This document shows positions 36,382 to 37,317 of a DNA stretch of 64,000 nt, one piece after another. Numbering within the stretch: the stretch's first letter is position 1; every line of letters starts with the position of its first letter. A program made the position numbers and the translations under genes. Origin of the DNA: Sphingobacteriaceae bacterium (GTDB lineage: Bacteria > Bacteroidota > Bacteroidia > Sphingobacteriales > Sphingobacteriaceae); contig DATLXK010000070.1 of assembly GCA_035575925.1 (NCBI GenBank), forward strand, positions 1,406-65,405, written 5' to 3'. The notes below the pieces were generated by a model. The model did no database searches and had not been told where the DNA came from. It saw only the letters and a list, made by a program, of their open reading frames with translations.

Positions 36382-37317
36382 TTATGAAACACCAACCTGT
36401 TTTATAAACTCATTCCATATCTTTTCGGCTATTTGTTTGTCGGTTAGTGGTTCTTCACCTCGGGAATGCATAACATTTCTATGCTCCCAATAAAGACTAT
36501 AATCATCTTGTTGGATTGAAAATGTCTTATCTAAGCTTATTGTATTCTGTGGTAGTTGTTGCGTAAAACTGTAACTTAAATCCCCTCCAAATCCAAAATT
36601 TTCTCTTCCTAAACAATACACGGTGATATAGGCATCTTTAAGATTACCTTTGTTGGAAATCAAACAGCTAAATACTTTCTTTTCTTCTTCTAAAAATCTT
36701 CCTTGGAGATTTTCTATTCCATTAAATTCGGCTATGGCTGCTTTAAAATAGTTTTTAATGCTCTCAAAGCTTTCCTCCTTAAAATCTAATATATCAACTT
36801 CAGTGAATATTTTTTCAGCTTTGTAATTTCTGCCAAATGCTACCGGATGAGTACTATAAACAGATTTTTCATCTAAACGAACCAAATTTCGGGAAAGTAA
36901 TTTTCGAAATTCTTGAGTGATATTTAGAAATGCAGTATTTATATTTTGCCAGTCTGCGACTGGTTTTCCATCGGTTGGAAGAGCTTTGAATTCTTTAAAC
37001 GGGGTTGCCAACCATTCGCACGGCTCGACAATAATTGGAACAATGGTTATTTCCCCATCTTTAAACATTCTAAATGCATGATTAAATTCTTTTTCATAGC
37101 AATAATAGGAAGCGATATATTCTGGGCTTAACATAGCAACAAACAAGTCGGAACTTGTTAAATTATCTAAAATTTCTTTATCTAAAGAAGTACCAGCCAC
37201 AAGTTCCTGGTCTGTCCATGACGATAATAACTTCTCTCTTTTTAAATTAGTTAAATGGATTTCTAATTTATCTAACATCGCCTTATCAGCATGGCTATAG
37301 GAAATAAATGCTTTCAT
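36382..37317 (-). CDS. TIR-domain protein with an uncharacterised ~170-aa C-terminal domain
   Basis: N-terminal FISYSHADK...LFVAMLSPEYIASYYCYEKEF fits the bacterial TIR_2 pattern (candidate catalytic Glu E75/E77). The start codon lies 1 nt after the hsdS stop. Confidence 0.8.
   Translation of the reverse strand: MKAFISYSHADKAMLDKLEIHLTNLKREKLLSSWTDQELVAGTSLDKEILDNLTSSDLFVAMLSPEYIASYYCYEKEFNHAFRMFKDGEITIVPIIVEPCEWLATPFKEFKALPTDGKPVADWQNINTAFLNITQEFRKLLSRNLVRLDEKSVYSTHPVAFGRNYKAEKIFTEVDILDFKEESFESIKNYFKAAIAEFNGIENLQGRFLEEEKKVFSCLISNKGNLKDAYITVYCLGRENFGFGGDLSYSFTQQLPQNTISLDKTFSIQQDDYSLYWEHRNVMHSRGEEPLTDKQIAEKIWNEFIKQVGVS

Follow-up and report, generated by a model that had tools for sequence, protein, structure and literature searches.

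The 64,000-nt stretch of Sphingobacteriaceae bacterium DNA analyzed here (assembly GCA_035575925.1, contig DATLXK010000070.1, positions 1,406 to 65,405; hereafter the window) carries on its minus strand, at 36382..37317, a gene for a 311-residue protein with an N-terminal Toll/interleukin-1 receptor (TIR) domain and a C-terminal Y4lF domain, here called TIR-Y4lF. TIR proteins are central to the immunity of bacteria, plants, and animals. Our favored interpretation, to which we assign a probability of roughly 50%, is that TIR-Y4lF is a self-contained sensor and NAD+-consuming defense protein whose expression rides on a restriction-modification (R-M) operon. An infection cue would act on the Y4lF domain, the predicted input, whereupon the TIR domains would assemble into an active oligomer and consume NAD+ by hydrolysis or possibly cyclization, with Glu77 (E77) as the candidate catalytic residue. 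The infected cell would then cease to support phage growth. The gene has no promoter space of its own; its transcription and translation would be piggy-backed on the operon hsdR-hsdM-PDC-M04A-PDC-M04B-hsdS-TIR, which it entered through recombination in the 3' end of hsdS. An earlier note on this DNA had raised two options, one of which, an effector that consists of one protein and brings its own sensor domain, is still the best reading.

The gene begins with ATG and was delineated from the list of open reading frames (ORFs) with their translations and by Pfam and PADLOC matches. Immediately upstream lies hsdS (37319..38644, minus strand, 441 residues), which matched Pfam Methylase_S and, over its full length, PADLOC Specificity_I (E = 1e-102). 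Direct reading of the junction gave the hsdS stop codon TAA at 37319-37321, a single base C at 37318, and the ATG at 37317-37315. This is the arrangement described by the earlier note, a 311-residue ORF one nucleotide past the hsdS stop. The peptides that it quoted were also correctly placed (FISYSHADK at residues 4-12, LSPEYIASYYCYEKEF at residues 63-78), as was its numbering of E75 and E77. A total of 141 database homologues were found, nearly all of ~310 residues, colinear, and beginning with MKAFISYSH. One of them (P0001), recorded from a Sphingobacteriaceae metagenome-assembled genome (MAG), is identical to the window protein and is labeled PF13676 and PF27176. On sequence evidence, the TIR gene is not a chance ORF, because its TIR_2 match exceeds the gathering score and because it has these 141 homologues.

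The TIR domain spans residues 1-148 (36874..37317, minus strand), as delimited by AlphaFold2, Foldseek, and a profile search of the Protein Data Bank (PDB). Pfam TIR_2 (PF13676) matched residues 4-102 with E = 2.3e-16 and 60.8 bits against a cutoff of 28. The AlphaFold2 model of the full protein, calculated with 25 family sequences as input (mean pLDDT 84), shows a disordered linker (146-161) between a TIR domain of flavodoxin-like fold (residues 1-148) and an alpha/beta domain (~173-306). The TIR part was predicted with pLDDT ~85-94 and the element order bA-aA-bB-aB-bC-aC-bD-aE. When the full model was compared with the PDB by Foldseek, the NAD+-cleaving plant TIRs RUN1 and RPV1 were matched with E = 2e-4, together with L6/L7, Toll-like receptors including TLR2, and SARM1. 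The top match of the family profile among PDB sequences was the TIR domain of Cat1 (9mud), with E = 7.9e-15 over residues 2-97. Both sequence and predicted fold thus agree with the earlier assignment of the N-terminal domain as TIR, and the profile searches that might have pointed to a different domain returned TIR.

Of the two glutamates proposed earlier as catalytic candidates, only E77 (codon 37087..37089, minus strand) held up. It was conserved in 25 of 25 aligned family members, whereas the position of E75 was occupied by eight residue types (E/N/D/Q/K/T/I/R). In the hidden Markov model (HMM) alignment to Cat1, the glutamate of the Cat1 motif D-ELEQA falls on E77. Because position 75 varies and the Cat1 glutamate aligns to E77, we dropped E75 as a candidate. 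This residue would support the predicted NADase activity.

The C-terminal region was reported earlier as matching nothing recognizable from residue ~140 to 311. This did not stand: residues ~160-311 correspond to the Pfam family PF27176 (Y4lF) and to the C-terminal half of the PADLOC model PDLC00420. The Y4lF domain covers residues ~163-306 (36400..36831, minus strand), as placed by the Pfam label and by a domain-only AlphaFold2 model. The PF27176 label is carried by P0001 and by 116 of 120 listed homologues; for the window protein it rests on precomputed annotations. The window protein thus belongs to a large family that is already indexed and whose architecture is catalogued (PF13676 plus PF27176, and the PADLOC ThsB model), and its description as having an unknown C-terminal domain was therefore overstated.

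The fold prediction and Foldseek search that had been suggested for this domain gave a confident model and no significant structural match. The domain-only model (pLDDT 88, pTM 0.82) comprises a long helix, six strands, and a C-terminal helix. Its best Foldseek match in the PDB had E = 0.08 and a TM score of 0.33, its best match in BFVD had E = 0.02, and a profile of the domain found nothing under E = 0.78 among PDB sequences. UbcH5 and START-like folds from the PDB search (E >= 0.08, TM <= 0.34) and small uncharacterized phage proteins from BFVD (E >= 0.02) were considered as fold relatives and set aside as noise. No CARF, SAVED, or STING sensor fold was found in this domain by Foldseek against the PDB or by the PDB sequence search.

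The Y4lF profile, searched against 1.84 billion representative sequences, identified 547 clusters at 50% identity. Most of them consist of TIR-Y4lF proteins of ~310 residues, with the domain at residues ~160-315, or of fragments of such proteins. The one exception is a 352-residue protein (P0163, L088:8001-9059) with a class III adenylate/guanylate cyclase domain in the place of the TIR domain. Y4lF is thus a module usable behind two different nucleotide-processing enzymes. The P0163 gene adjoins a second, divergently transcribed cyclase-like gene, and its surroundings are mostly housekeeping genes. In distant family members, the Y4lF half was 19%-36% identical, compared with 35%-41% for the whole protein; that is, Y4lF diverges faster. 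We infer that Y4lF is the input domain, which would either sense or control assembly.

The surroundings of the gene were examined for a partner protein. The PADLOC scan of the window covered the 50 largest non-overlapped ORFs of the 64 kb (8 + 21 + 21) and returned only the type I R-M genes, the pair PDC-M04A/B, two SoFic-like proteins, and a few weak candidates. Among the matches listed there was no ThsA or other known effector, and also no CD-NTase, prokaryotic Argonaute (pAgo), or type III CRISPR/Cas family. This bears out the earlier remark that no ThsA/SLOG/Macro partner, Argonaute, or cyclase lies nearby. No partner of the Thoeris, CBASS, Pycsar, or pAgo kind was thus seen among the ORFs scanned, and a ThsA inside the window was accordingly discarded as the partner. 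Related loci were surveyed by clustering 735 neighbor ORFs of 82 loci; Pfam and PADLOC scans took in the cluster representatives plus 152 neighbor representatives. No effector-sized recurrent neighbor was present among the matches listed for these 82 loci. The neighbors included type I, II, and III R-M systems, GmrSD, McrBC, AbiH, and transposases, as well as pAgo with nucleases, a Lamassu-like SMC protein, STAND NTPases, BrxR with an SNF2 helicase, DUF1156, and DUF499. A Fic protein as recurrent neighbor, an idea suggested by the window and by plasmid pNGR234a, was rejected: it was found in only two other loci, and there at a distance from the TIR gene. Two members of the Bacteroidota clade described below (L010 and L011) adjoin housekeeping genes (NorB or TonB/MacB). 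The lack of an effector in the window, the lack of a recurring one in the 82 loci, and these housekeeping settings support autonomy.

The same data bear on a different interpretation, in which TIR-Y4lF is a ThsB-type signal generator that makes a cADPR-like messenger on infection, its effector being unlinked or an unrecognized neighbor. The PADLOC model PDLC00420 ('ThsB1|ThsB') matched residues 3-306 of the protein over model positions 4-313 of 319, with E = 1.4e-50. Thoeris effectors extend well beyond PADLOC v2, which predates ThsF-L: the TIR survey counted ~29 predicted types and validated 7 new Thoeris types. In addition, Y4lF also occurs behind the class III cyclase domain, another signal-making enzyme. 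However, no ThsA family was listed for the window ORFs, and defense signaling pairs are normally adjacent. The sole recurrent neighbor in the 82 loci is a 54-residue zinc-ribbon protein, too small for the known effector types. The family profile matched 43 PDB chains at E <= 1; none of them is called ThsB, and the closest solved structure is that of Cat1. We consider the signal generator quite unlikely. Thoeris as a system was rejected in any case: the ThsB profile was matched, but with no effector among the 50 window ORFs scanned and none recurring in the 82 loci, the locus is not Thoeris by system definition.

The zinc-ribbon mini-gene divides the family. An ORF of ~54 residues with a CxxC...CxxC zinc ribbon follows TIR-Y4lF in 50 of ~84 loci (for example at L006:10821-11084, L043:10917-11096, and L067:10875-11096), and in 43 of the 49 loci where this could be measured, its start codon lies so that the two genes overlap by exactly 8 nt. 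Its consensus is RFRCxNCGHRFExEVL...RPTSxVHCPECxRTDIRRGWE, which resembles FmdB/Zn_ribbon_8 below threshold only. In one protein (P0127), the zinc ribbon is fused to TIR-Y4lF. The gene product is shorter than 60 residues, and gene callers probably miss it. It was absent throughout the 64-kb window and from the Bacteroidota clade. A neighbor-joining tree of TIR-Y4lF proteins separated the clade without the zinc ribbon (26 leaves, all Bacteroidota-type, the window included) from the clade with it, which is mainly proteobacterial. In four proteobacterial loci (L006, L020, L023, and L028; ~1-9700), TIR-Y4lF was found beside a divergently transcribed array that comprises BrxR (WYL), an SNF2 helicase, and a ~1400-residue protein (cluster c28); DUF1156 and DUF499/HEPN proteins are among the Pfam labels of the L006 array. 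The zinc-ribbon gene is also present in L006, L020, and L023, and a small DUF2188-type ORF lies directly upstream in L006 and L023.

The two clades also differ in their linkage to R-M genes. Gene calls in the related loci were longest-ORF calls, and hsd genes were recognized there with HMMs made for the occasion from the proteins of the window. In the Bacteroidota clade, the TIR gene was the last gene of a co-directional R-M array of type I, III, or IIG-like in 16 of the 24 loci with enough flank, compared with 3 of 42 loci in the zinc-ribbon clade. When all loci were grouped by absence or presence of the zinc ribbon, the R-M-terminal and other positions numbered 17/13 and 3/39, respectively (Fisher p = 6e-6, not corrected for phylogeny). 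Over the whole set the association with R-M was not near-exclusive, as the R-M-terminal position was found in 20 of the 72 loci in which the upstream flank extended for 4 kb or more.

The gene directly upstream varied. It was hsdM in L001, L005, and L013-L015; hsdR in L009 and L012; hsdS in the window and, with an intervening 171-residue ORF, in L021; a fused IIG-type enzyme in L017 and L075; a type III res gene in L032; GmrSD-HNH in L054; and an Mrr-like gene in L056 and L059. What recurs is therefore a place at the 3' end of a restriction operon and not proximity to hsdS. The earlier note had proposed a survey of hsdS-TIR adjacency in other Bacteroidota; in our loci R-M adjacency was common within the Bacteroidota clade, but adjacency to hsdS specifically was not. 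Its second option, an effector functionally tied to the type I R-M complex, fared in the same way, with a link in gene order but no HsdS-specific one.

A functional version of this link can be formulated as a guard similar to PrrC or PARIS, in which Y4lF would monitor the R-M complex or a phage anti-restriction factor and free the TIR NADase when restriction is subverted. The contrast between the two clades in R-M-terminal position favors it, as does the short distance from the preceding gene (-1 to 33 nt in L001, L005, L013-L015, L017, L021, L032, L054, L056, L059, and the window). The arrangement also persists despite divergent alleles of HsdS and TIR-Y4lF in the window and L021, and there is a precedent in PrrC, which is almost exclusively embedded in type I R-M loci (Payne et al., bioRxiv 10.1101/2024.01.29.577857). 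On the other hand, a specific protein-protein interface is unlikely with partners as heterogeneous as hsdM, hsdS, hsdR, IIG-type, type III res, GmrSD, and Mrr-like genes. The TIR gene ends its operon, whereas PrrC sits between hsdM and hsdS. In about one-third of the clade loci, the co-directional genes upstream include no R-M gene, and for most members of the family as a whole there is none within 10 kb. Zinc-ribbon loss and R-M linkage map to one clade and thus represent approximately one evolutionary event. Finally, type I R-M operons commonly hold embedded defense genes, and these are generally independent systems (Payne et al., bioRxiv 10.1101/2024.01.29.577857). We regard the guard as unlikely, and equally doubtful is its extension to the proteobacterial relatives, where the zinc-ribbon protein would hold the partner role that R-M has in Bacteroidota. 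A broader formulation, in which Y4lF would read the state of any co-expressed R-M enzyme or sense phage anti-restriction factors and trigger the TIR NADase once restriction is disabled, with the 54-residue zinc ribbon as substitute in Proteobacteria, would make the protein the TIR counterpart of PrrC/EcoprrI, equipped with a new sensor fold also able to drive a class III cyclase; we rate this as distinctly improbable. The self-contained protein carried by an R-M operon remains our preferred interpretation.

How the gene came to its position is recorded in the window. The minus-strand array has the order hsdR, hsdM, PDC-M04A (DUF3800), PDC-M04B, hsdS, TIR-Y4lF, orf98, and SoFic. Repeat search and alignment detected a direct repeat of 144 nt (repeat family D1; 88% identity, spacing 1118 nt) with one copy on either side of the TIR gene. 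Copy 1 (37324..37467, minus strand) is the true 3' end of hsdS, and copy 2 (36206..36349, minus strand), directly after the TIR gene, is a relic of it. The relic translates to EQNQELASLRDWLLPMLMNGQVKVAGAYKEVEETLGMVAEGETAYNLNRNEL up to its stop, compared with QQNQELASLRDWLLPMLMNGQVKVVEAYKEVEEKLGMVAEGEVDYKLTK at the C-terminus of HsdS, and still encodes ...QELASLRDWLLPMLMNGQVKV.... This duplicate of the hsdS 3' end on both sides of the TIR gene indicates insertion by recombination within the hsdS 3' end. The scar of flanking duplication was seen only in the window and in no other related locus. The ORF that follows (orf98, 35906..36202, minus strand) had no match in Pfam, PADLOC, or NCBIfam. Its ATG lies just inside the 3' end of the relic and overlaps the relic stop, and judging from this overlap orf98 is probably the gene that originally lay downstream of hsdS. 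As a partner of the TIR protein it was rejected, since it had no homologue in any related locus.

A second relic, of the 3' end of hsdM, abuts or overlaps the hsdS start (38634..38774, minus strand; translation KYHGIRIEDFKMKMQGFESNLSALFVEGNLLDVEIQNQLKGLGYEES). It was 47% identical to HsdM residues 495-537 in a pairwise comparison (E = 1e-10), and points to the block of hsdM and PDC-M04A/B having also arrived by recombination in an hsd gene end, replacing an older hsdM. The intact hsdM lies at 40066-41685 (minus strand; Pfam N6_Mtase, E = 9e-63; PADLOC MTase_I, E = 3e-257) and hsdR at 41686-44823 (minus strand; Pfam HSDR_N, SWI2_SNF2, and ResIII; PADLOC REase_I). Between hsdM and hsdS lies the candidate defense pair PDC-M04A (39367-40062, minus strand, 231 residues; PADLOC E = 2.5e-71; Pfam DUF3800) and PDC-M04B (38911-39366, minus strand, 151 residues; PADLOC E = 4.9e-53).

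The same placement of the pair between hsdM and hsdS was found in L021, a locus from a Sphingobacteriales MAG. HsdR, HsdM, and PDC-M04A of L021 and the window were 90%-93% identical (PDC-M04A, 90%), whereas the identities of PDC-M04B, HsdS, and TIR-Y4lF were 59%, 46%, and 43%, respectively. A conserved backbone with divergent 3' genes shows that the operon is a mosaic with an exchanged 3' part, and the drop in identity from PDC-M04A to PDC-M04B places a recombination breakpoint within or near this pair. Despite the exchange, the TIR-Y4lF gene was retained at the operon end in both loci. Co-transcription from hsdR to the TIR gene would fit the gene spacing. No terminator-like site was found on the minus strand over this interval. 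The scans for terminators and for sigma-70 promoters were, however, uninformative: both gave as many sites as expected from shuffled sequence, and the promoter scan does not extend to promoters of the Bacteroidota type.

The operon lies in a low-GC defense island that looks like the remnant of an integrated mobilizable element. Its GC content was 0.32-0.39 over 35-45 kb; the left flank (28-34 kb) had 0.40-0.43 and the right flank 0.37-0.45. One edge is formed by a tRNA-Glu gene (34448-34520, plus strand, ARAGORN) and the other by a MobA/VirD2 relaxase fragment (45138-45458). Two Fic-family genes lie at opposite ends of the island and on opposite strands, namely the SoFic-like gene (34612-35736, minus strand; PADLOC SoFic, E = 4.6e-119) and a second gene at 45762-46871 on the other strand; the two are divergent in sequence (phmmer E ~1e-19). 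Three imperfect palindromes of 26 nt (CTTAAATAA...TATTTAAG) with 41-nt spacing occupy 35748-35855, a short distance upstream of the start of the SoFic-like gene at 35736, and may form an operator array.

In a further reading, TIR-Y4lF would not be an anti-phage protein but cargo of mobile elements, an addiction or competition module, or a non-catalytic TIR scaffold. In its favor, relatives are carried by 49 plasmid records, of which 27 are mobilizable or conjugative and at least one has the gene beside type IV secretion system genes; y4lF itself lies on pNGR234a, and the window island has a relaxase fragment and abuts a tRNA gene. Plasmids and islands are, however, typical carriers of defense genes, and the neighbors of the family are overwhelmingly defense genes. 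The invariant glutamate and the conserved TIR core argue for catalysis, and no TIR-Y4lF copy was found in 50,697 phage records. A role outside anti-phage defense is, in our view, very unlikely.

At least 582 species genomes encode a relative. The neighborhood analysis used the best 80 of these loci, which match full-length or nearly so, together with the loci of three database proteins; being the best-scoring, the 80 over-sample close relatives. The namesake Y4lF of Sinorhizobium fredii NGR234, located by tblastn on pNGR234a, was colinear with residues 4-305 at 28% identity (E = 9e-34). NCBIfam holds no specific model for the TIR-Y4lF family. A literature search for 'Y4lF' returned only an unrelated paper on the detection of potato virus Y, and neither a search for an orphan ThsB nor one for TIR proteins combined with a zinc ribbon turned up a characterization of the family. 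No characterized system uses the Y4lF domain. The zinc-ribbon partner, the exchange of TIR for a cyclase, and the tendency of the Bacteroidota genes to end R-M operons appear undescribed.

Several points weigh against the interpretation of TIR-Y4lF as an autonomous NAD+-depleting protein. The literature searched holds no biochemical or phage data on any family member, and TIR proteins that stand alone were expressly left out of the systematic TIR survey that is both the largest and the latest. The zinc ribbon overlaps the 3' end of the gene in most non-Bacteroidota relatives, so the family does not strictly work as a single gene, and in Bacteroidota some other factor, on which the protein may depend, could take the place of the zinc ribbon. 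The strong preference of the Bacteroidota clade for the R-M-terminal position may likewise mean more than piggy-backing. The TIR domain could be a signal generator instead of an NAD+ depleter, as PADLOC files the family under ThsB. Because Y4lF has no analogue in the PDB or BFVD, its designation as a sensor follows from position and modularity only.

Systematic surveys have focused on Thoeris-type operons of several genes and passed over TIR proteins that stand alone, and the TIR-Y4lF family is large. It comes in two genomic flavors, with an overlapping zinc-ribbon mini-gene or appended to R-M operons, and its second domain has a confidently predicted fold for which the model found no solved or viral analogue in the PDB and BFVD. 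Should Y4lF be the sensor of infection, TIR enzymes and, in one case, a cyclase would have a new type of input module. A functional R-M linkage would provide a second case, with a different mechanism, of a suicide module wired to restriction enzymes. If neither is true, TIR-Y4lF would be one more uncharacterized TIR defense gene with an R-M operon as its landing pad, a process of which the insertion scars in the window are an unusually clear illustration.

Among known systems, Thoeris ThsB shares with TIR-Y4lF a TIR domain with a conserved glutamate, the full-length profile match, and the defense-island setting. TIR-Y4lF differs from ThsB in having no effector in the window scan or recurring in the 82 loci, a 150-residue Y4lF domain, and no ThsB-named chain among its 43 PDB matches. 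Cat1 (9mud) is the closest solved TIR relative, and its TIR domain is also N-terminal (residues 3-94 of a 263-residue chain). Cat1 was, however, absent among the 50 listed Foldseek matches, Y4lF alone had no significant PDB match, and no Cas family was among the PADLOC matches listed for the 50 window ORFs. TIR-SAVED, TIR-STING, and the TIR-APAZ proteins of SPARTA likewise have a TIR domain fused to a second domain. The weak PADLOC matches to SAVED_TIR (residues 3-145) and the weak Foldseek matches to TIR-STING and SPARTA are due to the TIR part; the Y4lF domain differs from SAVED, STING, and APAZ, and neither a CD-NTase nor a pAgo was found in the window scan.

The pNGR234a protein Y4lF is colinear with the window protein and is annotated merely as 'toll/interleukin-1 receptor domain-containing protein'. 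Unlike the window gene, y4lF is plasmid-borne, has no adjoining R-M genes, and is followed downstream by a gene for a 161-residue hypothetical protein and a Fic gene. The genomic setting of the window gene most resembles that of embedded genes of the PrrC/EcoprrI type. PrrC is an anticodon nuclease, whereas TIR-Y4lF is a TIR protein, stands at the 3' end, is linked to several R-M types, and belongs to a family that is mostly unlinked to R-M. Like PrrC, the TIR-Y4lF gene is co-directional and tightly spaced within a type I R-M array, this linkage recurs in its clade, and the window operon also holds a further embedded candidate pair, PDC-M04A/B.

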